A stretch of DNA of 64,000 nucleotides. Origin: an uncultured Gemmatimonadaceae bacterium (GTDB lineage: Bacteria > Gemmatimonadota > Gemmatimonadetes > Gemmatimonadales > Gemmatimonadaceae). Location: NCBI GenBank assembly GCA_963751275.1, contig CAVVTZ010000007.1, forward strand, positions 1 to 64,000. Direction: 5' to 3'. Below the pieces are notes generated by a model. The model was not told the DNA's origin. It made no database searches and saw nothing but the letters and a program-made list of their open reading frames with translations. Positions 26,944 to 52,485 of the stretch are shown piece by piece. The position numbers were made by a program, and so were the translations under genes. Each line of letters opens with the position of its first letter. Positions within the stretch are counted from its first letter, which is position 1.

Positions 26944-27547
26944 ATGCGTCGTCTTCTTCTCATCGTTGCAGCGGTAATTGGTACTGCATTCGTCGCGAAC
27001 ACCGCGTCGGCGCAGGTCGATACGCACCACGGCTTCTATGCCAGCGTCGGCGGCGGCTACGGCTCGCAGACGACCAGCTTCACTTTCGATGGCGAGAGCG
27101 ATGGCACCGAGTCGTTCATGGCGACCACGTGGTACGCGCAGGCCGGCTGGGGGCTGAAGCCGCAGTGGGCGTTCGGTGTCGAGGCGAACTATCTGAAGGG
27201 CTCGTGCGGGTTCTGCGGTGGCGAGGAGCACCTGACCGCGCTCTTCTACACTGCGGCGGCCACGTGGTACCCCAAGGCGAACGACAATTTCTTCCTCAAG
27301 CTCAATCTCGGGTATGGTTCGGTGGAGGACCAATTCAGCGGGGGCTCGACCACGGAAGGCGGCTTCGCCGGCGGTAGTCGGCATCGGCTATGACTGGGCG
27401 ATTGGCAAGGGCGGCTTCATCGTGAAGCCGTTCGCGAACTATCTCAGCCAGTTCTCGGAATCGACATTCAGCGGCTCGTTTGGGACTGGCGAGAAGGGCC
27501 GCGTGCAATTGCTCCAAATCGGCGTCGGTCTCGGCTTCAAACACTAA
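26944..27547 (+). CDS. Outer-membrane 8-stranded beta-barrel protein, paralogue 1 (frameshift near 27377)
   Basis: AGGAGG SD; signal peptide; amphipathic strands; continues as GIGYDWAIGKGGFIVKPF...GVGLGFKH in 27314..27547. Confidence 0.8.
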
Positions 27548-27629
27548 GCGCGACTCAATGATCGCCAACGGGGTTGCGACGAATTCGCGATGTGCCTCGT
27601 TGGGTGAATCCACCCACTTTGGAGCCAAC

Positions 27630-28244
27630 ATGAGAAAGCTCTCGACCTTTGCTGCACTTGGAATCGCAAGCCTCTTCGCGGCTGGCACGCTCTCCGCGCA
27701 GACCGACACGCATAAGGGGATCTACGCCAGCGCCGGCGTCGGCTATGGCGCACAGACCTTGAGCCTCACGCTCGCTGACGGCGACAACGGCGGCTCAACC
27801 GCGAGCCAGGAAACCACGTGGTATGGGCAGATCGGCCTCGGTGTGAAGCCGCAGTGGGCGTTCGGCGTTGAGTTCAATTACATGAAGAGCGGCTGCGATG
27901 AGTGCGGCGGCGGCAACACGCACATCACGAACTCGTTCTATTCCGCGGCGGCCACGTACTATCCCAGCGCGACGAACAATTTCTTCCTGAAGCTGAATCT
28001 CGGGTACGCGCAGAACCAGGTGGCTTTCACGGGTTCGAGCTCCGATACCGAGGGTGGCTTCGCCGCCGGCCTTGGCTTCGGTTACGATTGGGCGATCGGC
28101 AGCGGGGGCTTCATCGTCAAGCCCTTCGCCAACTATCTGGCGCAGGTCTCGAGCGCCACATACAGCGGCGGCGGCAGCGTCTCCGGCGAGAAGGGACGCG
28201 CGCAATTGCTGCAGTTCGGCGTCGGCATCGGCTACAAGCACTAA
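27630..28244 (+). CDS. Outer-membrane beta-barrel protein, paralogue 2
   Basis: GGAG SD; signal peptide; NFFLKLNLGY, GYDWAIGSGGFIVKPFANY and GVGIGYKH. Confidence 0.85.
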   Translation: MRKLSTFAALGIASLFAAGTLSAQTDTHKGIYASAGVGYGAQTLSLTLADGDNGGSTASQETTWYGQIGLGVKPQWAFGVEFNYMKSGCDECGGGNTHITNSFYSAAATYYPSATNNFFLKLNLGYAQNQVAFTGSSSDTEGGFAAGLGFGYDWAIGSGGFIVKPFANYLAQVSSATYSGGGSVSGEKGRAQLLQFGVGIGYKH

Positions 28245-28264
28245 GCACGTCGTTCCTGCATGCC

Positions 28265-28301
28265 AAAAGGGGGCCCGTCGCGAGAGCGGCGGGCCCCTTT
28301 T
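28265..28301 (+). terminator. Intrinsic terminator (possibly bidirectional)
   Basis: AAAAGGGGGCCCGTCGC-GAGA-GCGGCGGGCCCCTTTT. Confidence 0.85.
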
Positions 28302-28444
28302 CTCGCCCTGGGACGGCCGTGACGGCCGGGGTGCCTCCGGCGTCCATCCGCCAGATGTATTGGCGGTCGCGACCTGGCCGCCCATGTTAGTTCGCAACGT
28401 GCCCGGCCGGTCCGGCCGGGACATCCACCCTCGCAGGAGGAAAC

Positions 28445-29047
28445 ATGCGTAAGCTCACGCTCCTCGCAGCACTCGCGGTGCCGGCCGTATTCGCGGCCAC
28501 CTCGCTGTCCGCCCAGGCCGAAACGCGCACGGGCTTCTACGTCAGCGGCGGCGGCGGCTACGGCTCCCAGACGGCCGATGCCAGCAGCGGCGGGGAATCG
28601 CAGAACGAGAGCGGCAGTGGAGCGACCTATTACGCGCAGCTCGGTTGGCTCCTCAACCAGAAGTGGGCGATCGGCGCCGAGTGGAACTATGCCCAGACGG
28701 GCTGCGGCGATTGCGGTTCGGGCCAGCACATCACGAACAGCTTCTATTCGGCCGCGCTCACCTGGTTCCCGATGGAGAAGAATAACTTCTTCGCGAAGAT
28801 CAACCTCGGCTACGGCGGCAACGAGATCAGCGGTGACGGCGAGTCGGCCTCGGAGATGGCCTTCTCCGGCGGCATCGGCGTCGGCTTCGACTGGGCGATC
28901 GGCAAGGGCGGCTTCATCGTGAAGCCCTTCGCGAATTACTTCACTCAGTTCTCGAAAGGCACGTATGGCGGCTTCTTCGCGGGTGACGACGTTCAGGGCA
29001 CGGGCGGCCTGTTCCAGGTCGGCGTCGGCATCGGCTACAAGCACTAA
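28445..29047 (+). CDS. Outer-membrane beta-barrel protein, paralogue 3
   Basis: AGGAGG SD; signal peptide; same strand motifs as paralogues 1 and 2; ends GVGIGYKH. Confidence 0.85.
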   Translation: MRKLTLLAALAVPAVFAATSLSAQAETRTGFYVSGGGGYGSQTADASSGGESQNESGSGATYYAQLGWLLNQKWAIGAEWNYAQTGCGDCGSGQHITNSFYSAALTWFPMEKNNFFAKINLGYGGNEISGDGESASEMAFSGGIGVGFDWAIGKGGFIVKPFANYFTQFSKGTYGGFFAGDDVQGTGGLFQVGVGIGYKH

Positions 29048-29070
29048 GCACGAAGTTGCAGCAGGCCAGC

Positions 29071-29108
29071 GGGGCTCGTCGCGCAAGCGGCGGGCCCCGT
29101 TTCTCTTT
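29071..29108 (+). terminator. Intrinsic terminator, paralogous to 28265-28301
   Basis: GGGGCTCGTCGC-GCAA-GCGGCGGGCCCC followed by GTTTCTCTTT. Confidence 0.8.
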
Positions 29109-29172
29109 CGCGGACCCCGGACCGCCCCGGCGCGCGGGGGGTAGCAGTCCCACCACGCTCACGGAGCCGTGA

Positions 29173-29784
29173 ATGCGCAGAGTTCGCCGCTTGGCCATTG
29201 CCGCCGTATTGCTCGTCGCCGTCACCGCCGCGCTCCCCGCACAGCGCACTGAAGGCGTCACCGCGAGCATCGGCCTCGGCTACGGCAGCCTGTCTACGCA
29301 CCTCTCCGACAACGCCGATGAACACGTCTCCGGCTCGCAGGGCGCCGCCGCCGGCTCGATCGCGCTAGGCTGGGCCTTCAGCGACCAGTGGCGCGTGGCG
29401 CTCCAGTTCGACCAGGTGGATGCGACGAACTATCTCGTCTCGCAGGTCGGCAGCGGCACGGAGGCGATCGCGGCCTTCTACACGGCGTCGGTCGCATTCT
29501 ATCCGGGCGCCAGATCCAACTTCTGGGTGCGGGCCAACGTCGGCATGGGGCACATCGAGCTCGACCGCGCCGACGGCAACGGCAGCGCCACGAACTTCGC
29601 GGCGGGCCTCGGTGCCGGCTACGATTGGAAGTTCGGCAAGAGCACTCCCTTCGCCGCGGTGCCGTACATCAGCTATCTGGCGGTGTTCAACACCGGCGAC
29701 TTCGGCGGTGCCTTCAGCGGCCTCGACCTCCATGGATCCGTCGGGCTCCTCGAGGTGGGCGTCGCCCTGGGATTCGGCAACTAG
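29173..29784 (+). CDS. Outer-membrane beta-barrel protein, divergent paralogue 4
   Basis: Signal peptide; IGLGYGS, FYTASVAFYP, NFWVRANVGMG, GLGAGYDW and VGVALGF align with paralogues 1-3. Confidence 0.8.
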   Translation: MRRVRRLAIAAVLLVAVTAALPAQRTEGVTASIGLGYGSLSTHLSDNADEHVSGSQGAAAGSIALGWAFSDQWRVALQFDQVDATNYLVSQVGSGTEAIAAFYTASVAFYPGARSNFWVRANVGMGHIELDRADGNGSATNFAAGLGAGYDWKFGKSTPFAAVPYISYLAVFNTGDFGGAFSGLDLHGSVGLLEVGVALGFGN

Positions 29785-33889: not shown

Positions 33890-34945
33890 GTGACGCCCTT
33901 CCGTTGGATCCTCGCGGCGGTCTCCTTCGCCGCCGCGATCGCGGTCTCGCTGTACATCGTGCGCTCGTCGTGGCCCGCGGAGAACGCCGCGGTCTCCGTG
34001 TCGCCGCTCGTGCACGCCGCGCTGCTGGCGCTCGCGCTCCTGGAGCTGGGCGCGCGGGGACTGAAGGTGCGGCTCAGCGCGGCGGCGCTCTCGATCCCGA
34101 TGACCTACGGCTCCGCCCTGCGCGCGAGCGCGGGCGGCGACTTCGGCGCGGCGATCACGCCGGCGCGCACGGGCGCCGAGCCCGCGCGGTTCCTCATTCT
34201 CACCGAAGCGGGGATGTCCTCGGCCCATATCATCCTCGTGATCTTCGCCGAGTTGTTCCTCGAGATGATCTCGCTCGCGCTGGTGGCCGTCGCGATGTTC
34301 GTGGTGTTCAAGGGCTCGGGCGGGATGATCCTGGGCATGGCCGGATTGGTCGCCGCGTACGCCGTGTTCGTGCTCGGCGGCGCGGCGATCGGGTTCGCGC
34401 TCTCGCGGACGCACGCGTCGGGACCGCCGCCGAAATGGGCGGCCTACGTGGGGCTCGACGCCGGGCGGTGGCGGGCCGTGCAGCGCTCACTGCGCCAATT
34501 GCGCGACGGGATCGAGGGGCTGCGCAATGTGCGGTACGGCATGGCCACGCTGGCGCTGCTGGCGTCGCTCGCGCATGTCGCGCTGCGCCTCTCGATCCTG
34601 CCGCTCATCGTGTACTCGTTCCACGAGCCGGCGCCGCTCGCGCCGCTCATCCTGTGGCCGATCGCGCTCACGTACGGCAGCGTCGTCGCGCCGGTGCCGG
34701 GCGGCGGCGGAGCGATCGAGGTCGCGTTCAAGGCGACGCTCGGCCACACGATCCCGGCGCGCGTCTTCGGCGCGTCGCTCATTTGGTGGCGCTTCTACAC
34801 GTTCTACATCTTCGTGCTGCTCGGTGCGCTCGTCGCCGGCGGCACCGTGCTGCGCGCGCTCCGCGACGATCCCGCCAAGGACAGCGGCGGGAACGGCGTT
34901 ACGGACGCTGTGGACGCGGCACGAGGATCGGCCGCAGCACCCTGA
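33890..34945 (+). CDS. Lysylphosphatidylglycerol synthase TM-region (UPF0104 flippase-like) protein
   Basis: ITPARTGAEP, PVPGGGGAIE and WWRFYTFY motifs; polytopic membrane protein. Confidence 0.85.
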   Translation: MTPFRWILAAVSFAAAIAVSLYIVRSSWPAENAAVSVSPLVHAALLALALLELGARGLKVRLSAAALSIPMTYGSALRASAGGDFGAAITPARTGAEPARFLILTEAGMSSAHIILVIFAELFLEMISLALVAVAMFVVFKGSGGMILGMAGLVAAYAVFVLGGAAIGFALSRTHASGPPPKWAAYVGLDAGRWRAVQRSLRQLRDGIEGLRNVRYGMATLALLASLAHVALRLSILPLIVYSFHEPAPLAPLILWPIALTYGSVVAPVPGGGGAIEVAFKATLGHTIPARVFGASLIWWRFYTFYIFVLLGALVAGGTVLRALRDDPAKDSGGNGVTDAVDAARGSAAAP

Positions 34946-36110
34946 GCGAATCCAGCGGCAGGGGGCCGCTGAGCGTGAACTCCGTGCCGGTGGAATCCGT
35001 CCACTGGATGGAGTTGACGCCCTCCTGCTCGTCCATGCTCTTCATGCGGAATTGGCGCCGCGCCGCGCGTCCCGCCGAATCGCGCGCGGCAGTGGCGGCG
35101 CTGTCGGCATCGCTCCGCGATTCCGCCGGCGCCGTGGCGGTGGACGCGGCGGGCGCCGATGCGAAGCTGGCGAGCGTCACTTCGACCCCGGGCCGCACCT
35201 CGAACACCTTCTTCTGAACGACGCCGGCCTCCTCGGGCACCGTCTGCTCGCTCACGAGCCGCATGCCGGGGAACGGCAGCACGACCGCGCGCTTCGCGGT
35301 GGGCGCGACCGCCATCTGCGACATCTGTGGCGAGGGCGCCTTTGGCGTGAGCTGCGCCTGATCCGTGGCCAGCCCCGGGGCGAGCGCGCCGGAAGCGGCT
35401 GCGGAAGCGGCTGCGGGAGCGGGTGCGGGAGCCGCCGCGACGGCACCATTCACCGGCATGCCGGCCGCCGGTGATTGCATCGCGGGCTTCGGCGCCGCGG
35501 CGCGATCCAATGCGCCTCCCTGCGCTGCGCCATTCTCGTTCGCGCCGCCCGAATCGCGCATTCCGGCGGCGAGCTGCGGCTCCTCGGCTTTCTGCTTCGT
35601 CTTCTCCTCGAGCTTGTCGGCCATCACGCGCGCGTCGGCACCGGCGCCGGCGGCGCCCGCCGGAGCGGCTGCAGGCGCGCTCGTATCGACCGACGGTGAC
35701 ACCGACGCCACCGCCGCGGGGGCGGCCACCGGGAGATCCTTCGCCTTCAACTGGTCTCGTTGTGGCGCCCGCATCGCGGAGCCGCCGTAGGTCATCACGA
35801 GCAGCGTGCCGGTCGCGACCACCACCAGCGATGCCGCCACGCGCAATGTCCACGGCGGGATCCGCGGAGCGGTGCGCGGCGCGGCGGCCGCACCCGGTGT
35901 CGCGCGATAGTCCTTCGGGATCACGCCCGCCGGCACATTGTCGAGCGCCGCGAGGATCCGCGAGGACGCGGCGATGAACCCGCGCGCGTCGGCTACGGCG
36001 GACGCGCACTGGGTGCAGCGCGCGGCGTGCGCTTCCGCCTTGCGCTCATCCTCCGCGCTCAGCGCGCCATCCAGCCACGCGTGGATCGTTCCTTCGTCAA
36101 GATGCCGCAT
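34899..36110 (-). CDS. Zinc-finger (zf-HC2) anti-sigma factor with TM helix and long Ala/Pro-rich extracytoplasmic region
   Basis: MRHLDEGTIHAWLDGAL...HAARCTQC (HxxxCxxC); TM WTLRVAASLVVVATG; overlaps the ECF sigma stop. Confidence 0.88.
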   Translation of the reverse strand: MRHLDEGTIHAWLDGALSAEDERKAEAHAARCTQCASAVADARGFIAASSRILAALDNVPAGVIPKDYRATPGAAAAPRTAPRIPPWTLRVAASLVVVATGTLLVMTYGGSAMRAPQRDQLKAKDLPVAAPAAVASVSPSVDTSAPAAAPAGAAGAGADARVMADKLEEKTKQKAEEPQLAAGMRDSGGANENGAAQGGALDRAAAPKPAMQSPAAGMPVNGAVAAAPAPAPAAASAAASGALAPGLATDQAQLTPKAPSPQMSQMAVAPTAKRAVVLPFPGMRLVSEQTVPEEAGVVQKKVFEVRPGVEVTLASFASAPAASTATAPAESRSDADSAATAARDSAGRAARRQFRMKSMDEQEGVNSIQWTDSTGTEFTLSGPLPLDSLRVLRPILVPRPQRP

Positions 36111-36618
36111 GATCGCTCCCGATCCGGCGCGGCATGCGCTGCAGCGCCTCATAATGTTCAACGAGCCGGCGGCGGGCGCGCGAGAGCGTCGTGCCCACCG
36201 AGCGCACCGACAGCTTCAGCGCCACCGCGATCTCTTCGTAATCCAATCCCTCTTCCCGCATCAGGAGCGCGAGACGGTCGCGTTCGGCCAGCCCATCCAC
36301 CGCCGCGCGCGCCAATGCGGCATCCTCGGCCCGTTCGGCGCTCAGCGGCTCCGGTTCGAATACGTCGTCCTTCTGCTCCTCGCGCAGCAACTCGAGGTGC
36401 CGCCGCTGGCGCGCGCTCTTGCGGGCATCGTCGCGCACGAGGTTGTTGGCCACGGTGAACAGCCACGCGCGCTCGTTCGTGATCGTCTCCTGCCGGAGCG
36501 CGCGCACGAACGTCTCCTGCGCCACCTCTTCCGCCCAGTCGCGGTCCCCCAGCCGGCGGGTCAGGTAGCGCACGAGCATGTCGTGATAGGTGCGGAACAA
36601 CCGGTCAACGTCGTGCAC
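36097..36618 (-). CDS. ECF RNA polymerase sigma factor
   Basis: AEEVAQETFVRA, AWLFTVANNLVRD and EGLDYEEIA..L..SVRSVGTTLSRARRRL. GTG at 36618 with GGAGA SD. Confidence 0.92.
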   Translation of the reverse strand: MHDVDRLFRTYHDMLVRYLTRRLGDRDWAEEVAQETFVRALRQETITNERAWLFTVANNLVRDDARKSARQRRHLELLREEQKDDVFEPEPLSAERAEDAALARAAVDGLAERDRLALLMREEGLDYEEIAVALKLSVRSVGTTLSRARRRLVEHYEALQRMPRRIGSDHAAS

Positions 36619-36701: not shown

Positions 36702-37958
36702 TCAGTAGTCCCCTGCTCCGGACGGGATGCTCGCCATGCCGAGTGGCGGCGTGACCAGCTTGTCATCCCGTGTCACCTCGGAGATCTGCGGTTCGAGCCG
36801 CCGCATCATGGATGTGAACGCCCGCGCGACGTCGGTGTCGAATTCCTTCCCGGCGCGCTCGTCGATGAAGAGCAGCGCCTGCGCCGCCGGGTACGGCGAG
36901 CGGTGCGCCCGCTCGATCCGCAGCGCGTTGTACACGCTGCACACGCGCACCATCTTGCTCCCGAAATGGATGGGGCGCTTGAACAGCCCCTGCGGATAGC
37001 CGCTCCCATCGGGACGGAGATGGTGTTCGTAGGCCACCGTGGCGCCCAGTTCCATGCGCTTGTCGCTCTGCAGGATGATGCGCGCGCCATCCACCGGGTG
37101 CCGTTCCACGATCTTCCGCTCCGCATCCGTGAGCTCGATCGGCTTGGACACCAGCTCGCGCGGCACCTTCGCCATGCCGAGGTCGTGCAGCAGCGCGGCC
37201 ATGCCGAACTCGTGCACGTCCTTGTTGCCGAGTCCGAGCGACTCCGAGAGCGCCATCACGAGCACCGCGACGTTGATCGCGTGGATCGCGTTGTACGGAT
37301 CGCTCGCCTTGAGGCGCAGCAGCGGGATGATCATCGCGCTGCTCCCCTTCATCGCGACCGTGAGCGACCGCACCACCGCGTCCGCTTCCACCAGCGGCAC
37401 GACGTCCTTCGCCTCCACCTGCTCGTAGATCCACGTCGCGGCGCCGGCTTCCTCTTCGAGGGCGAAGGGCAGCCCGGTGCCCTCCATGCCCCCCGCGGGC
37501 GTCGGGGTGCGGGTGTCGCCGAGATCGGCGTTCCCTTCCTCGAGTTCGCGCACGGTGACGATGCCGAAGCGGATGCTCTGGCGCGCGCCCGGTGCGCGCG
37601 TAGGCGCCGGGACGGTCCCGCCCGCGCCGCTCTGCACCACGCGCGCGAGCACGTCGGCCACGAAGTCCTCGAACTCGTCGCGCGTCACCTCGGCGTCGAA
37701 CTCCATGCGCTGCACGCCGGATTCGGCGAGCCGCTGCGCCCAGGGCCAGTCCTTGAGGTCGTGCAGCGGCGCCTGGCCGTAGATCACGTCGCGGCCGATG
37801 AAGGAGAAGAGCGGCTGCGCGTTCTCCTTCTGCAATTCCGCGAGCTGGTCGTACGAGGCGTCGGCCGCGCGCTTCCACGTGGGATGCTCGCGCGGGTACA
37901 GCATCATCGTCGACAGGCTCTGCGCGAGCGACGTCAAGAACTTCGCGGGGGCGTTCAT
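36702..37958 (-). CDS. HD-GYP domain protein (degenerate), copy B
   Basis: DPYNAIHAINV, LLHDLGM, HPVDG, EHHLRPDGSGYP and KEFD. ATGA overlap with the upstream HEAT gene. Confidence 0.88.
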   Translation of the reverse strand: MNAPAKFLTSLAQSLSTMMLYPREHPTWKRAADASYDQLAELQKENAQPLFSFIGRDVIYGQAPLHDLKDWPWAQRLAESGVQRMEFDAEVTRDEFEDFVADVLARVVQSGAGGTVPAPTRAPGARQSIRFGIVTVRELEEGNADLGDTRTPTPAGGMEGTGLPFALEEEAGAATWIYEQVEAKDVVPLVEADAVVRSLTVAMKGSSAMIIPLLRLKASDPYNAIHAINVAVLVMALSESLGLGNKDVHEFGMAALLHDLGMAKVPRELVSKPIELTDAERKIVERHPVDGARIILQSDKRMELGATVAYEHHLRPDGSGYPQGLFKRPIHFGSKMVRVCSVYNALRIERAHRSPYPAAQALLFIDERAGKEFDTDVARAFTSMMRRLEPQISEVTRDDKLVTPPLGMASIPSGAGDY

Positions 37959-40069
37959 GCGCTCCTCGTGCCGCGCAACGCGGCCTGGATCTCGGGGTCA
38001 CCGTCGCGCGCCGCGATGGCCAGCACCCGCTGCGCGGCGGGCTCCTGCTTCCACGTCGTGGCCAGCGCCGCGAGCGCGGCGACCGTCACCGGCGTCTTCG
38101 GGGCGAGTTTCCGGCGGAACTGGAACCGGCGCTTCGGCGCGAGTGTGGCCGCCACGAGGCAATCCAGCACGGCCTGGAGGCGCACCGGCTGCAGCACTTT
38201 CACGGCGAGCACGCCGAGCATGCCTTCCAGCGAGTGCGCGGTGAGGCGTGCGGTGAGCACGGGCATCGCGTCGCGCGGGCATCCCCGCTCCGCCGCGACG
38301 TTCAGGCCGGCGCGCACGATGCGTTCGTCCTCATCGCCCACCGCATCGGCCACCGCCTTGTCGCGCAGCTTCTCATCGTTGAGCAGCAGCGCGTAGGCCT
38401 CGCGCCGCACCCGCGCGTCCGGATTGCGCGCGTAGGGCTCCGCGCTGAACCCCGCCGGCCACTGCGGGAGCCGTCCCATGAGGAGCAGCAGGTTGCGCTG
38501 CACGAACCACTGCGCCTTCGGAAGCCGCGCCACCACCGCGTCGCCCACTTCGGGGCCGAGCTGCGTGAGCATTTCGAACAGTTTCCAGCGCGCGCCGCGC
38601 TCATCTTCCAGTTCCAGCGCGTCCAGCAGCGCGCCGGCGGCCGGGAACCCCACGCGCGAGACGAGCCGGTACAGCACCTCGAAGTCGATCGGGCGGTCGC
38701 GCAGGAGCCGGCGGATCGTGCCGGTGTTGTCGAGATGGCGGCGCACCGTGCGCACCACCTTGTTCTCCTCCGGCGTCCCATCGACGAGCGCGAGCAGCGC
38801 CGCGATCTGGCCCCGCTTCACCATCTCGGCCACCGCGTGTTTCGTCGTCGCGCCGAAGACCTCGGTCTCCAGGCTGAGCTGCACGATGTGCTCGGCCGGC
38901 ACGTCGTACATCCCGCTCGCCGCGGCTTCCTTCGCCGGCTCGGCGATCAGCTTCTCGAGCGTCTGCCAGTAGTTCTCCTCGGGCAATTCAGCGGCGTGGT
39001 CCCAGTCGTTGATCAGCTGGCGCACGTTGTCGCGCAGCGCCGCGTCGGCCTTGTCGCGCCGGTTCGGCGACCCCTTGCCGGCGTGCTTCGCCAGCTTCGC
39101 GAGCAGGAGCAACAGCGCTTCCGACATTGTGTGCGCGGACGCCGAAGCGACCGCCTTCGCGAGATCGAGCACCGTGTCGGCCGCGAGCGCGTGCGACGCG
39201 TTGAGCATGAGCTGCTTCTGCTGCGCCCAGTCCGTGTTGACCTTCAGGATCCGCTGCAGCGCTTGCGGCGTGAGACTGCCGATCAGGTTCGAGACGCGCG
39301 ACTGGAGCGCCTTGGCCGCCTGTCCGCCTTTGGATCGGATCTCGTCCATGAACGAGCCGAACATTGAGAGGATGCCCTTGTCGAAGTCCGGGTCGTTCTC
39401 GCGCCGCTCGATCGCGCCGGCGAGCGCGAGCGGATCGTTCGCGTACTCCGGCACCGTGATCGCGCCGCCCATCATCTCCGGACCGACGGCCGACCGCGCG
39501 AGGCGCGTCCAGAGTTGGCTGGCCCAGCTGCCGCGCTCCGGATCCTCGGCGTTCGCGTCCTTGTCCTGCAGTTCGAGCTGGTCGTACGAGAGCGGGAGCA
39601 GGCGGAGGTGCGGCCACTCGCGCACCGGCAGCGGCGCGGCCGCGTTCTCCTGGCCGTCCTTCACCGCCGCGATCTTCGCGGAGTTCCGTTCGCCCGCCTT
39701 CGAGCCCTCGCGGGCGATCGTCTTCATCACCTCGACGAGCTCGACGTCCTCCACGCCCTCCTGGATGCGCACACCACCGACCTCCCGTCGGTAGAGCTTC
39801 ACCGCGAGCTCGCGGAGCACCGCCGTGTTGCGGTCGGTGGCCATCCCATCGATCAGCAGGTGGTCGCGCGCCACGCCGATCGAGAAGGTCGGGCGCTCGG
39901 CGAGGATCGGCTTGAGACGCCGCGCGATGCCCGTGGCCGCCGTCTCGAGCAGCGGGTGCCCGTCGGGGTACATGGTGTACTTGTGGAGCGCGGTGGACAG
40001 CTCCACGAGGAACTCGGTCAGTTCACGCGGCAGCGCGGCGGTGTCGGCGCTGGCCTGGGTTGTAGGCAC
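37955..40069 (-). CDS. HEAT-repeat protein, copy B
   Basis: 704 aa, helical; WFVQRNLLLL, PDARVRREA, DEDERIVR and DGDPEIQ HEAT-like motifs. Confidence 0.85.
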   Translation of the reverse strand: MPTTQASADTAALPRELTEFLVELSTALHKYTMYPDGHPLLETAATGIARRLKPILAERPTFSIGVARDHLLIDGMATDRNTAVLRELAVKLYRREVGGVRIQEGVEDVELVEVMKTIAREGSKAGERNSAKIAAVKDGQENAAAPLPVREWPHLRLLPLSYDQLELQDKDANAEDPERGSWASQLWTRLARSAVGPEMMGGAITVPEYANDPLALAGAIERRENDPDFDKGILSMFGSFMDEIRSKGGQAAKALQSRVSNLIGSLTPQALQRILKVNTDWAQQKQLMLNASHALAADTVLDLAKAVASASAHTMSEALLLLLAKLAKHAGKGSPNRRDKADAALRDNVRQLINDWDHAAELPEENYWQTLEKLIAEPAKEAAASGMYDVPAEHIVQLSLETEVFGATTKHAVAEMVKRGQIAALLALVDGTPEENKVVRTVRRHLDNTGTIRRLLRDRPIDFEVLYRLVSRVGFPAAGALLDALELEDERGARWKLFEMLTQLGPEVGDAVVARLPKAQWFVQRNLLLLMGRLPQWPAGFSAEPYARNPDARVRREAYALLLNDEKLRDKAVADAVGDEDERIVRAGLNVAAERGCPRDAMPVLTARLTAHSLEGMLGVLAVKVLQPVRLQAVLDCLVAATLAPKRRFQFRRKLAPKTPVTVAALAALATTWKQEPAAQRVLAIAARDGDPEIQAALRGTRSA

Positions 40070-40150
40070 GCGGTGGTGGGCGACGGGTGTGGACGGCTCG
40101 AAACGGGGGCATGATGCCCCTCAAATCTGACCGTCTCCCCCTCGGTCACG

Positions 40151-41461
40151 TCACGACCGGATGATGCCGCTCCCCTTGGGGGTGGCCGGGCGGCCCCCCA
40201 CGTGCGGCACCCCTGCCCCGGGCGTCGCTGCGCCCCGGCGCATCGGCTCGTTCTGGATCGGCACCTCGCCCGAGACGCGCGCGGGGGGCGTGATCGTCTG
40301 CCCCTCGTCGAACGGCATGATCCGGCGCTCCCAGCGCCGCATCATCGTGATGAACGACTTCGAGATGTCGGCGTCGAACACCGTGCCCGCCTTCTCCTCC
40401 ACATAGCGCAGCGCGCTCTCCGGGGTCCAGGCGCCGCGATGGAAACGCCGGGTGCGCAGCGCATCGTAGCAGTCGCACACCTGCACGAGCTTGCTCGCGA
40501 AATGCAGATCGCGCTCGAAGTGCGTCGTGGGGTACCCGCCCCCGCCCGGCAGCATGTGGTGCTCGAAGGCCACCACCGCCGCGAGGTCCAGCTGCGGCTC
40601 GCTGCCGAGGATGATCTTCGCCCCCTCGGCCGGGTGGATGCGCAGCAGCGCCCACTCTTCCTCGGTGGGCGGGCCCGCCTTCGACACGATCTCCTTGGGC
40701 ACGCGCGTCATGCCGACATCGCGCAACAGCCCCGCGACGCCGATCGCGCGCGTGTCGCGGCCGCCCAGTCCGAGGAACTCGGCGAGCCCCATGACCAGCA
40801 CCGAGACGTTGAGCGAATGTGCCGTGGTGTACTGGTCGAACTCCTTCAGCTGCAGCAGCGGCATCATGATCTCGCTGTCGCCATGCATTGCGACCGACAG
40901 GGAGCTCACCACCGCCTCGACCTCCGCCGCGGGCAGCGGACGGCCGGCCGCCACATCGGTGTAGATCGTGCTGATCGTGTCGATCTCCTCGTCCAGCGGG
41001 AAGTTCATCCCGAGGATGGGGAGCGGATCGGTGAGGAACTGGTCCTGGTCGCCGCGGATGCCGATCGCGCCGAACTTGATGCTCTTGTACTCCTTGCCCT
41101 CCACCTTCTGCGTATGGCGCGGGTCGACGAAGCCCGGCGTGATGAGCGCCATGATCTCGAAGAGGAAGTCATCGAACTCCTGCTTCGTGACCTCGTCGAC
41201 GAACTCCAGGCGCTGGATCCCGTTCCGGGTGAATCGCTCGGACCACTCCCAGTCGCGCAGTTCCTTCAGCGTCTTGTTCTGGTAGACGACCTCGTCGCCA
41301 AGGAAGGAGTACTTCACCTCCTTCTCGGCGCGCTGGAGCTTCTGGATGATCTCCAGCGCCAGGTTCGCGGATTTCTCGCGCGCCGGGTGCGATGGCGAGT
41401 AGAGCGCCATCGCGGCGAGCGTCTTGCCGAAGGCGTTAAGGAATCGAATTGGTTCGATCAC
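40151..41461 (-). CDS. HD-GYP domain protein (degenerate), copy A
   Basis: DQYTTAHSLNV, LLRDVGM, HPAEG, EHHMLPGGGGYP, VCDCYDAL and GTVFD. Confidence 0.88.
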   Translation of the reverse strand: MIEPIRFLNAFGKTLAAMALYSPSHPAREKSANLALEIIQKLQRAEKEVKYSFLGDEVVYQNKTLKELRDWEWSERFTRNGIQRLEFVDEVTKQEFDDFLFEIMALITPGFVDPRHTQKVEGKEYKSIKFGAIGIRGDQDQFLTDPLPILGMNFPLDEEIDTISTIYTDVAAGRPLPAAEVEAVVSSLSVAMHGDSEIMMPLLQLKEFDQYTTAHSLNVSVLVMGLAEFLGLGGRDTRAIGVAGLLRDVGMTRVPKEIVSKAGPPTEEEWALLRIHPAEGAKIILGSEPQLDLAAVVAFEHHMLPGGGGYPTTHFERDLHFASKLVQVCDCYDALRTRRFHRGAWTPESALRYVEEKAGTVFDADISKSFITMMRRWERRIMPFDEGQTITPPARVSGEVPIQNEPMRRGAATPGAGVPHVGGRPATPKGSGIIRS

Positions 41462-43547
41462 TGGGCCTCCGGCGCGCCGTCGCGGCCGCGCGGACCTCGA
41501 GATCCTTCGACTTCTGGGCGATGTCGAGCACCGGCATCACCTCGGGGTTGTCCGACCAGCCGCTGGCGAGTCCGCTGAGCGCGGCCAGCATCTCCGGCGT
41601 CTTCGGCACGAGCTTCGTGCGCCGCAGGAAGCGGGTCTTCGTCACGGCGTACGCGAGCAGCCACGTGAGCGTCGCCGGATCCTTCGCCGCCCCGACGACG
41701 CGCAATCCGAGCGCGCGCAGTTCCGGCGAGATCGACTTGCGCTCGACGTGCCGCACGAGCAGCGGCACCGCAGGCTTCGGGCAGTCCTCGAGCGCAGCCT
41801 GCATCGCGAGCTTCACGATGCCGTCGTCGCGGTCGCTCAGCGCCGCGATGATCGTCTGGGCGCGCAGCTTCGGCAGACGCAGCAGCAGCTTGAGCGCTTC
41901 GCGGCGCACGCGCTCGTCGCCGTGCGTCATGTACTTCTGCGGCTGGAATTCCTCGGGGATCGCCGGCAGCATCGAGAGGAGCGTGAGCAGGTTCCGCTGC
42001 ACGTACCACGGCGTGTCCTCCATCGCGAGGCGCTTGAGCACCATCGGCCCCACGTCCGAGCCGAATTTCGCCAGGAGGTCGAGCAGTTTCCGCCGCATGG
42101 TGCGCGTCTCGCTCGTCTCGAGGCCCTCGAGCAGCAGCTCGACGACGTCGAGTCCCATGCGCGTCGTGATCCGCTCGAGCAGCCCCGGGTCGATCTGCTC
42201 TTCGCGCAGCAGGTGGCGGATGTTCTCGGGCGTCGCCACCAGCGGCCACAATTCCTCGGCCACCTTGCTGCCCTGCGGCGCGCGGTCGAGGAGATCGAGG
42301 AGCATCGCGATGCCGCCGTGCGAGATCAGCTGGTTCACCGCGAGCCACACGGGGGCGCCGAGTGTGTCCGTCTCGAGCGAGGTCGCGACGAGGCGCTTCG
42401 GCTCGCACGGATGCTGGCGCTGCAGCATCAGCGTGAACACGCGGCGCTGCGCCATGCGATCGAGCGCATCCTGGTAGCTGTCGGGGTTCAGGCGGCGCGG
42501 GTCCCAGTCGTCGGAGAGCTGCTCCACCTGGTCCTTCAGCGCGCGGCTCGCACCTGCGCGCATCACCGAGCCCCCCTTCTCCGCCTGGAGGGCGAGCTTC
42601 CCGATGAGGCGCAGCATCGTATGCGAGATCGTCTGCTTGGACGCCTTGGCCGCCGCCTGCACGAGCACGAGCACCGCTTCGGCGGCGAGCGTCTGGGAGG
42701 CGTCGAGCACGAAACGCTTCCGCTGCTCCACGTCGCCGCCCATTTCCATCAGCCGCTCGAGCGTCTCGGGCGCGAGTGTCTTGAGCAGCTCCGCCATCTT
42801 GCCGGCGGTCTCCGTCGCCTCCTCGCCCTGCGCGCCCTTGAGCGCTTCGGTGATCGACATGAGCGCGCTGACGATCGTCTGATCGTACGCGGGGTCGTCT
42901 TTGCGCTCGTTGAGGGCGCTCGCGAGCGTCATAGGGTCGAGGAGGTCCTCGGTCTCCATGCCCTCGGCGAGCATCAGCGTCGCGCGGGCGAGCGCGATCC
43001 AGATCAGCTTCGCGCCGGCCTTCTTGGCTTCGTCGTCCGTGAGGCCGCTGTCCTCGCCCATGAGCTCGAGCTTGTCGTAGACGACCGACGTCAGGGCGAT
43101 GTGCGGCCAGCGCTCCGTTTGCGCCGCGAGCGCGATCTGCGGACCCTCGTGCTCCTCCTTCGACGACGCGACGAGGAAGTCGGCCAGCTCGTCGCGCAGC
43201 ACCTCGGGGCTGATCGTGATCGAGCCCAGGCGGTGCCGGTGGAATCGCTGCGCGAGCTCCTTCATGAGCGAGTTGGTCGGATCGGTGGCGATCCCCTCGA
43301 TCACGACCTGCGTGCGCGCGATGCCGAGCGAGATGGAGCGGTTGTTCGACATCGCGGCGTCGAGGCGCTTCATGACGCGCTCGACCGCGGCCGTCAGCTG
43401 CGGGTGGCCGGCGGGGTAGATCGCGTGTTTCTGGACGGCGACGCCGAAATCCAACAGGAAGTCGGTGATGCGCTTGTCGATCGCGCCCGCGCCGGGCGCG
43501 CCCGAGGCGGGAACGCCCGTGGCGGGGGTAGCGGTCGGGTGGCTCAC
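41436..43547 (-). CDS. HEAT-repeat protein, copy A
   Basis: PWYVQRNLLTLL, HGDERVRREA, LSDRDDGIV and SKDLEVRAAA; paralogous to 37955..40069. Start uncertain (43547 or 43592). Confidence 0.85.
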   Translation of the reverse strand: MSHPTATPATGVPASGAPGAGAIDKRITDFLLDFGVAVQKHAIYPAGHPQLTAAVERVMKRLDAAMSNNRSISLGIARTQVVIEGIATDPTNSLMKELAQRFHRHRLGSITISPEVLRDELADFLVASSKEEHEGPQIALAAQTERWPHIALTSVVYDKLELMGEDSGLTDDEAKKAGAKLIWIALARATLMLAEGMETEDLLDPMTLASALNERKDDPAYDQTIVSALMSITEALKGAQGEEATETAGKMAELLKTLAPETLERLMEMGGDVEQRKRFVLDASQTLAAEAVLVLVQAAAKASKQTISHTMLRLIGKLALQAEKGGSVMRAGASRALKDQVEQLSDDWDPRRLNPDSYQDALDRMAQRRVFTLMLQRQHPCEPKRLVATSLETDTLGAPVWLAVNQLISHGGIAMLLDLLDRAPQGSKVAEELWPLVATPENIRHLLREEQIDPGLLERITTRMGLDVVELLLEGLETSETRTMRRKLLDLLAKFGSDVGPMVLKRLAMEDTPWYVQRNLLTLLSMLPAIPEEFQPQKYMTHGDERVRREALKLLLRLPKLRAQTIIAALSDRDDGIVKLAMQAALEDCPKPAVPLLVRHVERKSISPELRALGLRVVGAAKDPATLTWLLAYAVTKTRFLRRTKLVPKTPEMLAALSGLASGWSDNPEVMPVLDIAQKSKDLEVRAAATARRRPSDRTNSIP

Positions 43548-43664: not shown

Positions 43665-43706
43665 TAACTGCAACGGCGGGCAGCGACTGTCGACTGTCGA
43701 CTGTCG
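43665..43706. repeat. CGACTGT x3 heptamer repeat preceded by AACTGCAACGGC
   Basis: TAACTGCAACGGCGGGCAG-CGACTGT-CGACTGT-CGACTGT-CG. Confidence 0.65.
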
Positions 43707-43758: not shown

Positions 43759-43811
43759 AGTCACCATCAAGTGACAATATCTTGCGTAGTCACTATGTAG
43801 TGACTTACCTT
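43759..43811 (+). promoter_or_regulatory. Two AGTCAC-N6-GTGAC palindromes (candidate TetR operators) overlapping the tetR promoter
   Basis: AGTCAC-CATCAA-GTGACA (43759-43776) and AGTCAC-TATGTA-GTGACT (43788-43805). The second lies between TTGCGT (43782-43787) and TACCTT (43806-43811). Confidence 0.7.
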
Positions 43812-43817
43812 GCCTCG

Positions 43818-44438
43818 ATGACCCGGGACCGAGAAGCCACGCGCGCACGGATCCTGGCGGCGGCCGAGCAGGTGCTGACGCGACGGGGCGTGGGCGCCGT
43901 GCGCATCAACGCCGTTGCGGCGGCGGCCGGCGTGGACAAGGTGCTCATTTACCGTTATTTCGGCGGGCGCGCGCAGCTCCTGCGCGCGCTCGCGCGCGAG
44001 CGGCGCCTCTGGCCCGACGCCGATGCGGTGCGTGCCGCGACCGAGGACGCCGGCGGTGATGCCCCGTCGCTCGCGCAGGATCTCACCGCGATGCTGCTCG
44101 ATGCCGCGCGCGAACTTCGCTCGAGTCCGCTCGCGCGGCGCGCCGCCGCGTGGAGCATCACGGAGAGCGATGAGTTCGCCCGCGAGATCGCGGCGGCGCG
44201 CGGCGAGCACGCGCGCGCCATCGCCGGCGCGCTTCGCGCACGCCACCGGCTCCCCCCGTTCGTGGACCTCGATGCGATCGTCGCCCTGCTCGCCGCGGCG
44301 ATGACGCATCTCGCTCTGCATGCCGGGCCCGGCGCTGCGTTCGCGGGACTCGAGCCACGCCGCGATGAGGATTGGCGCCGTGCCGAGCGTGCGCTCACGA
44401 ACATCGCGCACGCCCTGCTCGGCCCGGTCGATCAATAA
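43818..44438 (+). CDS. TetR/AcrR family transcriptional regulator
   Basis: RDREATRARILAAA...GVGAVRINAVAAAAGVDKVLIYRYFG HTH. Confidence 0.92.
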   Translation: MTRDREATRARILAAAEQVLTRRGVGAVRINAVAAAAGVDKVLIYRYFGGRAQLLRALARERRLWPDADAVRAATEDAGGDAPSLAQDLTAMLLDAARELRSSPLARRAAAWSITESDEFAREIAAARGEHARAIAGALRARHRLPPFVDLDAIVALLAAAMTHLALHAGPGAAFAGLEPRRDEDWRRAERALTNIAHALLGPVDQ

Positions 44439-50904: not shown

Positions 50905-52417
50905 GTGAGTGACATGCCGCATCGTGTGAAGGCGATCTTCGCGTTCCTTCTCTTGTTGACCAGCGCTGCCAGCGCACAGGGAGTACGGTACCAGCGACTG
51001 CTGATCAAGAACGCCCTGATCATCGATGGCGCGGGCAATCCGGTGCGCGGACCCTTCGACATCACCGTCGAAGGGAACACGATCGTCGCGATCACCGATC
51101 CCGCGGTGCGGGAGGGGGGCGGCAGCGCGCTCCCGGGCGCGGTGGTCACCGGCAAGCCCGACCGCGTGATCAATGCGACGGGCATGTACGTGATGCCCGG
51201 CATCATCGACGTGCACTCGCACATCCAGTTCAGCCGCGCCGGCATCGCGATGCCCAAGGATTACGAGTACAAGCTCCTGCTCGCCTGCGGCATCACCACG
51301 ATCCGCGATCCCGGCTCGCTCGAAGGGATCGACACGATCGTCGCGCACGCGAAACTCTCGGCCGACAACAAGATCGCGGCGCCCACGATCATCCCGTATG
51401 CCGTGATCGAAGCGAACACGCCCGCTGAAGGGCGCGCGATGGTGCGCCAGGTGAAGCAGAAGGGCGCGAAGGGCCTCAAGATCTTCATCCTGCGGCCGGA
51501 ATGTGTGGGCCGCGGTCTCCGAAGAGGCGAAGGCGCTCGATCTGCCGATGGCCACCGACCTCAAGATCCAGGAGACCAATGCGCTCGCGGCCACGCGCTA
51601 CGGTGTGAAGTCCATCGAGCACTGGTACGGCATCCCGGATGCCGCGATCGTCGGCAAGCAGCAGTTCCCGGACTCCTACGTCTACGACAACGAACTCGAC
51701 CGCTTCCGCTGGGCGGGCGACATCTGGCGCCAGGCGGACTCCGCGCGCCTCTCCGCCGTGCTCGACACGATGCTGGCGCACGGCGTGACGTGGGACCCGA
51801 CGTTCGCCATCTACGAGGCCAATCGCGATCTGCAGCGCGCGCGGTCACAGCCGTTCCTGAAGGACTACGCGCTGCCTGCGGTGATGGCGCAGTTCGAGCC
51901 GAGCGCCGCGCGCCATGGTTCGTACTTCTTCGACTGGACCACCGCCGACGAGGTCCGCTGGCGCAACGACTACCGGATCTGGATGCATTGGGTGCGCGAG
52001 TACGCCGCGCGCGGCGGCAACGTGACCGTCGGCTCGGACGCCGGCTTCATCTGGGAACTCTACGGATTCACCACCATTCGCGAGATGGAGCTGCAGCAGG
52101 AGGCGGGGTTCCAGCCGCTCGAGGTGATCCAGCACGCGACCTCGAATGGCGCCAAGCTGCTGGGCTTGGCGAATACCGGCGTGGTGCGCCCGGGCTTCAA
52201 GGCCGATCTGATCATCGTGGACGGGAACCCGCTGCACAACTTCAAGGTGCTCTACCCGACCGGCGTGCAGACCGCCGAAAACGGAAAGCTGGTGCAGCGT
52301 GGCGGCGTGAAAGTCACGATCAAGGACGGCATCGTATTCGATGCGCCGGCCCTCGCCGCGGAAGTGCGGGCGATGGTGCACGCGGCCCAGGCGACGGCGC
52401 CGGCGCCGAAGAACTGA
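50905..52417 (+). CDS. Exported amidohydrolase family protein (frameshift near 51500)
   Basis: MPGIIDVHSH and GITTIRDPG; continues in 51503..52417 with SIEH, GSDAG, ATSNGA and ADLIIVDGNPL. Confidence 0.88.
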
Positions 52418-52485
52418 GCGGGTGGGGACACTGGCATGCCGTGACGGATTGTAATAGATAGTGCTGGCTCACAAACCAGGGTCCC

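Follow-up and report, generated by a model that had tools for sequence, protein, structure and literature searches.

Positions 1 to 64,000 (forward strand) of contig CAVVTZ010000007.1, from the assembly of an uncultured Gemmatimonadaceae bacterium (GCA_963751275.1; this whole stretch of 64,000 nucleotides (nt) is hereafter called the window), carry two paralogous copies, A and B, of a widespread two-protein module, in which a HEAT-repeat protein is encoded directly upstream of an HD-GYP protein, and all four proteins begin with one domain of about 135 amino acids (aa), here called the N-domain, which is marked by the motif LYPxxHP (Table 1). The best overall explanation for these genes, to which we give an even chance, is that they encode HEAT-partnered HD-GYP modules whose copies in the window act as receptors of cyclic di-GMP (c-di-GMP). 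In the mechanism we propose, the soluble HEAT protein would be the dedicated partner of the HD-GYP protein whose gene overlaps its own at the downstream end, translational coupling would yield 1:1 units of the two, and the middle helices of the HEAT protein would clamp the HD-GYP domain, as in the model of pair A. The HD-GYP protein of most genomes would be an intact phosphodiesterase, regulated and positioned by its HEAT partner; in the lineage represented in the window, dead enzymes would sense c-di-GMP and relay the signal by way of their HEAT scaffold, for which the protein DvhD provides a precedent. HD-GYP enzymes are controlled by fused sensor domains. The novelty here lies in the uncatalogued domain and in the dedicated HEAT subunit, while the kind of biology, c-di-GMP signalling, is a known one. 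The module is common in little-studied phyla of soil and sediment and in nitrifying ones, the model of the complex provides an interface that can be tested, and the pseudo-enzyme lineage may represent a new class of c-di-GMP receptor; we know of no identified c-di-GMP receptor proteins in many of these bacteria. Literature searches of main texts, titles and abstracts, with supplements and most subscription papers outside their reach, found no description of a co-inherited HEAT subunit of HD-GYP proteins, and the words 'HEAT' and 'Gemmatimonad' are absent from the main text of the Galperin and Chou preprint, its supplements being outside the search.

The first-pass annotation of this DNA had read the genes in the order HEAT-A, HD-GYP-A, HEAT-B, HD-GYP-B, with an overlap at the junction of each pair, and this layout is correct. 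The four open reading frames (ORFs) all lie on the minus strand, those of pair A overlapping by 26 nt and those of pair B by a 4-nt ATGA, with 81 nt between the pairs, and they are followed, in the same orientation, by genes for an extracytoplasmic function (ECF) sigma factor and a zf-HC2 anti-sigma factor. Both HEAT genes have uncertain start codons (GTG, with no clear ribosome site). HEAT-A matches Pfam HEAT_2 at an expectation value (E) of 1.7e-5, just under the curated cut-off, and residues 361-673 of its model found solenoid matches in the fold search and form an alpha-solenoid repeat; a Pfam search with HEAT-B alone gave no match, while the two HEAT proteins share 34% identity over 689 aligned positions. 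A recent tandem duplication of A and B was rejected (34% and 40% identity, separate clades), and the two are, to judge by their sequences, old paralogues. The A+B block is present in all five other genomes of the genus, and tandem pairs are also found in G012 (a genome flagged as unpublished), G015 and G017, the last with the pair order reversed; most other loci fetched from relatives hold a single A/B-type pair. It is almost certain that the conserved unit is the two-gene HEAT/HD-GYP pair, not the four-gene block. The four-subunit complex envisaged in the first-pass annotation finds no specific support, since the A+B block is mainly a trait of the genus. Its link with the ECF sigma factor, as a feature of the system, fares no better. 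The sigma gene directly follows the four genes in all three other genus loci that reach that far, but of 16 loci outside the genus only two have one in the vicinity, at distances of 2.5 and about 3.4 kb (within downstream flanks of 0-5 kb), which points to local synteny; the ECF pair as the output of the module is possible but poorly supported.

The pairing itself is found far beyond the genus, and HEAT and HD-GYP genes do co-occur in other genomes, across four phyla. Homologues named by NCBI belong to Gemmatimonadales or Gemmatimonadaceae, in keeping with the phylum of the source. The N-domain is encoded in 116 of 151 genomes of the phylum in question, Gemmatimonadota, in 56 of 121 genomes from the phylum to which G178 belongs (its record reads 'Deltaproteobacteria', and the tree taxonomy labels it Myxococcota), in 30 of 81 genomes for the Acidobacteriota centre and in 40 of 51 for the Nitrospirota centre. 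Co-oriented pairs 1.3-2.6 kb apart account for 110 of the 145 N-domain matches in the phylum of G178 and for 53 of 71 in Acidobacteriota. In the 17 such regions that were fetched, selected for having two N-domain matches, a long ORF is followed by an HD-GYP gene in every case, and Pfam HEAT_2 matched all ten upstream proteins that were scanned from these regions. In a tree of N-domains (a quick tree, built on few columns and with many open forks) the copies group by protein type, with 4 label changes versus a shuffled mean of 47.8, and the HEAT subtree and the HD subtree are mirror images in their A and B clades, A with A and B with B, suggesting co-inheritance of HEAT and HD-GYP.

As to the N-domain, it had been proposed from the sequence that it is common to the four proteins and unnamed, and both points hold. 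The motifs quoted at the time are present, and similarity between N-termini of different protein types is above chance in three of four pairwise tests (z 9.0, 5.7 and 5.0, with 0, 0 and 1 of 500 shuffles as high), that between HD-GYP-A and HEAT-B being not significant alone (z 1.3; 54 of 500 shuffles). A profile of the four N-termini recovered one more HEAT/HD-GYP pair, independent of the two in the window, on contig C11 (E 5.5e-6 and 0.04), which the iterated profile matches at 2e-22 and 3e-24. The AlphaFold2 models of HD-GYP-A and HEAT-A have a common order of elements (helix, YPxxHP loop, helix, two strands, helix, strand, helix, late strand), with a predicted local distance difference test (pLDDT) score of 84-97 across the first 110 residues. 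Searches of Pfam and NCBIfam with N-domain proteins gave no match to the N-domain, no Pfam family at E <= 10 matched more than 3 of 36 N-domain rows, a sequence search of the PDB gave one chance match only (DivIVA, E 0.86), and the ESM Atlas returned only scores of 0.76-0.77, within the chance range; the fold searches, run with full-length models, were filled by HD and HEAT matches. With 4,964 of 1.84 billion cluster representatives (at 50% identity) matching the profile at E <= 0.001, the domain is, on sequence grounds, a large uncatalogued family.

The case for a physical partnership comes from a model of a 1:1 complex of HEAT-A (residues 23-640) and HD-GYP-A (1-379). Its interface score (ipSAE) is 0.80, with 0.00 for the best control, contacts agree between runs at 89% or more, and the partners have pLDDT of at least 73; 116 of 157 solved complexes attain the 0.80 mark, as do 2 of 215 mismatched pairs, a calibration that is rough with our own alignments. 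By this model, HEAT-A likely binds HD-GYP-A directly. The confident contacts place HEAT-A residues 308-424 on HD-GYP-A residues 154-193, 232-240, 278-299 and 311-322, a patch that covers the helices carrying three His ligands as well as the helix before the HD core. The latter would correspond to the long helix that mediates dimerisation in PmGH, as described in the report on that enzyme (PMC4159591). Conserved charged residues at the interface (0.87-0.98 among A/B-type proteins) are R313, K317, E382, R385 and E392 on the HEAT side and E159, E180, R317 and H320 on the HD side. The model supports a main contact made by the middle helices of HEAT on the HD-GYP domain, not by the shared domains: no N-domain residue is listed in the confident interface, and a contact between N-domains, though possible, is uncertain. 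Of the docking that had been attributed to the shared domain, the part that stands is the predicted binding of the partners, but not the place assigned to it. Neither of the fold searches listed a like complex. Near the C-terminus of HEAT proteins, a hairpin with an aromatic residue and a net charge of at least +2, present in 50 of 60 alignment rows, may hold the scaffold at the membrane.

The receptor role is suggested by the active sites. Both HD-GYP proteins of the window possess the HD-GYP fold and the GYP motif, and the structures closest to the catalytic domain in the fold search are 3TM8, 4MCW and 9RBZ. When mapped on PmGH (4MCW), HD-GYP-A carries H221R and K225M, and HD-GYP-B carries K225M, D305S and D308N, with the HD motif kept. 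Alanine at H221, K225 or D308 essentially abolishes the activity of PmGH, according to the same report (PMC4159591), and both window proteins are very likely inactive or nearly so. Both keep H189, H250, H276 and H277 (PmGH numbering), the guanine-reading RxxR (R314 and an Arg at K317), K235 and Y285, and we lean slightly toward their binding c-di-GMP. As the catalytic residues are lost but the guanine-reading residues kept, the most likely role is that of c-di-GMP receptors, probably sensing rather than destroying the messenger, and the cyclic-dinucleotide-binding subunits of the first-pass annotation fit such degenerate sites. That an HD-GYP domain of this kind can be a c-di-GMP receptor is reported for DvhD of Desulfovibrio vulgaris (PDB 9RBZ; PMC13090378), which resembles the window copies in the loss of metal or catalytic residues and the retention of substrate-contact residues. 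DvhD is a membrane protein with dCache and PAS domains, encoded in an adhesin operon and having lost more ligands, whereas the window proteins, putative receptors, are soluble and HEAT-paired; no dCache or PAS domains of Pfam were found in the four proteins, and the neighbouring genes are for a TetR protein and the ECF pair.

The degenerate copies form a lineage. The combination of R and M at the H221 and K225 sites is found in 22 of 22 close homologues of HD-GYP-A, while in the remaining A/B-type homologues neither site is altered (92 of 92 aligned rows). K225M occurs in 13 of 25 A/B-type locus sequences, every one of them from a genome with at least two A/B-type modules; the other 12, including both tandem copies of G015, are intact, as are all 18 copies outside the phylum. 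The K225M proteins fall into two supported clades (98 and 88) that span two families and, as their sequences suggest, may share one origin (support 65). Compared with orthologues in the genus, the ratio of nonsynonymous to synonymous substitution rates (dN/dS) of the HD domain is 0.004-0.17 for A (4 loci) and 0.05-0.16 for B (3 loci), excluding rows at contig ends that paired paralogues (HD-GYP-B with L023, HEAT-A with L022), and with no row for the HEAT-A N-domain from L024. The HD-GYP proteins of the window are under purifying selection and are maintained.

A number of observations weigh against this explanation. The binding prediction comes from a model of one pair, A, with a trimmed HEAT-A. 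The mean conservation of the interface equals the background of the respective domains (0.53 versus 0.54 and 0.68 versus 0.68). A profile of the interface region matched partners of the A/B type, not of type C, the type of the pair on contig C11, and outside the phylum it found one partner only (L185, E 0.002); because it barely reaches partners outside the A/B type, the modelled binding mode may not be general, and other types may bind differently. The N-domain of HD-GYP-A, with dN/dS of 0.25-0.60, evolves faster than its HD domain. The RxY(K/R) motif has His in place of Tyr in both window copies. The D305A variant of PmGH, with activity strongly reduced, is reported to keep some (PMC4159591). 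Lastly, the iterated profile finds in the window genome only the six known copies of the N-domain and no GGDEF-N fusion.

Tandem copies in fusion proteins hint that the N-domain may pair with itself, a suggestion that we put somewhat below even. The domain would then make a second contact, whether inside a larger assembly or with further N-domain proteins such as the GGDEF fusions, or it may sense signals. The rival explanation that survives best takes up the last of these, making the N-domain of both partners a sensor of a small molecule or signal, responsive to a common cue, with the LYPxxHP loop as the binding site. It draws on the location of the domain outside the confident interface, on its N-terminal position on HD-GYP proteins and its presence in GGDEF fusions, positions typical of input domains, and on the loop itself, whose Tyr and Pro are invariant in 36 of 36 rows, with the Tyr conserved in no less than 90% of 68 diverse rows. 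Yet a sensor on a HEAT protein devoid of an output domain would need a further step, and the copies group by protein type, not by locus, and we consider this explanation unlikely. Quite improbable, in our judgement, is an extended form of the original proposal, in which docking or polymerisation between N-domains is primary and assembles A and B into a four-subunit complex feeding the adjacent ECF sigma factor. Both partners do carry the domain in all module types examined, tandem N-domains do occur in fusions, and the four genes do directly precede the sigma gene in the other genus loci that extend so far, but the N-domains are outside the confident interface, most relatives make do with a single A/B-type pair, the pair order is reversed in G017, and a sigma gene is near few of the loci outside the genus.

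Another rival explanation, to which we attach little probability, is that the window HD-GYP proteins are enzymes activated by the partner, with HEAT reshaping or completing the active site, or with a changed substrate. The partner is indeed modelled on helices that bear H276 and H301/H302 as metal ligands, each protein retains six of the seven canonical His/Asp ligands, and purifying selection is strong. Against this, K225 is lost in both proteins, together with H221 in A or D305 and D308 in B, the substitutions K225A, H221A and D308A each essentially abolish the activity of PmGH, and the intact relatives share both the partner and the interface residues. That the degenerate copies are remnants of a duplication in the course of decay, with an incidental gene pairing, is a very remote prospect, already largely refuted: K225M was encountered in no genome with fewer than two A/B-type modules, but the frames are open with dN/dS far below 1, the substitutions are identical in 22 of 22 homologues, the K225M clades span two families, and the pairing extends across four phyla.

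The modules of the window are one of several settings in which the N-domain is found. Tandem copies are present in GGDEF-AAA-N-N-HEAT proteins, which make up most of the 68 tandem hits of the protein search, the hits spanning Gemmatimonadota, Desulfobacterales, Acidobacteriota and Nitrospirota; among species genomes there are 33 such loci (Desulfobacterales, Syntrophobacterales, Acidobacteria, Nitrospirae and unclassified). These proteins, with a STAND-like AAA domain, are about 1,400 aa long and make up a family represented in at least four phyla (L072:3490-7791, L073:3084-7529, L095-L127), and in several Deltaproteobacteria loci two of the genes stand in tandem. A single N-domain is also found in GGDEF-AAA-N-HEAT proteins and in N-HEAT proteins with no HD neighbour, and one protein fuses an N-domain with HEAT, cNMP-binding and PilZ domains (L198:4926-7673). 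Besides HEAT and AAA, all identified partner domains of the N-domain belong to cyclic-nucleotide signalling. The type C HEAT/HD-GYP pair lies in a trp operon between trpB and trpA (G000:C11, about 150040-153220; L001:7040-10222, plus strand). Its HD-GYP protein has intact motifs and an RxxQ signature of cyclic GMP-AMP (cGAMP), conserved in 103 of 106 homologues; it is frameshifted in this assembly, the frame being open for at least 550 aa in five other genomes of the genus. RxxQ is also present in 5 of 18 HD-GYP copies of the module outside the phylum. The same genome encodes a MASE1-GGDEF protein (G000:C7:836572-838059; L087:472-1959, plus strand) with a Hypr signature, a candidate cGAMP synthase; in that signature (PMC6456294), the residue 26 positions ahead of the GGDEF Asp is Ser instead of Asp. 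The signature is present in 9 of 11 matching genomes among the 31 searched, and a literature search pairing Hypr GGDEF with Gemmatimonad found no paper. It is conceivable, though rather unlikely in its entirety, that all these belong to an undescribed class of signalling units, in which a HEAT subunit would clamp each HD-GYP, and a self-pairing domain would wire GGDEF synthases, RxxR c-di-GMP hydrolases, RxxQ cGAMP hydrolases and dead receptors into interchangeable, membrane-tethered complexes, the window holding the receptor version, and Gemmatimonadota would also run cGAMP signalling via GGDEF proteins with the Hypr signature.

Compared with known systems, the module differs from PmGH, a GAF-HD-GYP protein, in having the uncatalogued N-domain where PmGH has GAF and in having a dedicated HEAT partner gene, and the window copies differ further in being without K225 plus H221 or D305/D308. 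The topology of the N-domain may resemble that of PATAN/DUF4388; PF14332 gave no Pfam match, and an hhalign comparison with one DUF4388 sequence gave a probability of 0.3%, a weak test. Two DUF4388 proteins are encoded 5 kb apart elsewhere in the genome (G000:C5:63645-64118 and 69282-69764). Another point of comparison is the Bd1817 family (DUF3391-HD-GYP, PDB 3TM8). DUF3391 consists of four strands and then two helices, as stated in 10.1101/2021.11.05.467447, whereas the N-domain of the module starts with two helices. PF11871 (DUF3391) matched none of the four proteins or the 36 N-domain rows, hhalign of the N-domain with one DUF3391 sequence gave a probability of 0.3% (a single sequence and a weak test), an ESM Atlas score of 0.76 lay in the chance range, and the HD-GYP alignment to 3TM8 leaves residues 1-146 uncovered; a HEAT partner is not described for that family. 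A third example is the PmxA-type cGAMP phosphodiesterases with RxxQ/N (10.1101/600031), which the type C paralogue resembles; in contrast, the window copies have RxxR, and PmxA has Cache and HAMP domains, not the LYPxxHP N-domain.

Table 1. Positions of the two modules, their predicted parts and the adjacent sigma factor genes in the window
Feature	Positions	Strand	Description
HEAT-A	43547-41436	minus	703 aa; N-domain, middle helical region, HEAT repeats, C-terminal basic/aromatic hairpin
HD-GYP-A	41461-40151	minus	436 aa; N-domain and HD-GYP with R247 (HD->RD), M251 (GK->GM)
HEAT-B	40069-37955	minus	704 aa; HEAT-A paralogue
HD-GYP-B	37958-36702	minus	418 aa; N-domain and HD-GYP, HD kept, M262 (GK->GM), S341/N344 (DxxD->SxxN)
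Shared LYPxxHP N-domain, HEAT-A copy	43062..43478	minus	
Shared N-domain, HD-GYP-A copy	41042..41458	minus	
Shared N-domain, HEAT-B copy, with variable insert	39569..40030	minus	
Shared N-domain, HD-GYP-B copy	37536..37958	minus	
HEAT-A residues 308-424, predicted HD-GYP-binding helices including the conserved EPxR...LE...G motif	42276..42626	minus	complex model
HD-GYP-A residues 154-322, containing the predicted HEAT-A-bound surface	40496..41002	minus	complex model
Basic/aromatic beta-hairpin near the HEAT-A C-terminus, candidate membrane anchor	41610..41645	minus	strands in model
ECF sigma factor (Sigma70_r2, r4_2)	36097..36618	minus	likely start GTG 36618 after GGAG; neighbour, not a conserved part of the module
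zf-HC2 anti-sigma factor, neighbour	34899..36110	minus	likely start ATG 36110

Some further features of the DNA can be noted. A promoter scan returned a single sigma-70-like site, at 43660-43633 (chance expectation 0.4), which is not informative, and a terminator scan of the locus found none. Upstream of HEAT-A, in the gap between it and a divergent TetR gene (43782-44438), a 7-bp unit is present in three head-to-tail copies at 43684-43706 and could be an operator. An amidohydrolase gene at 50905-52461 is apparently split over two overlapping frames (starts 50905 and 51503); this split, along with the frameshifts in HD-GYP-C and probably in trpA on contig C11, suggests indel errors in the assembly. 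At 27480-29784 three similar genes for outer-membrane beta-barrel-like proteins stand in a row, one weakly matching OMP_b-brl and the others judged by eye.

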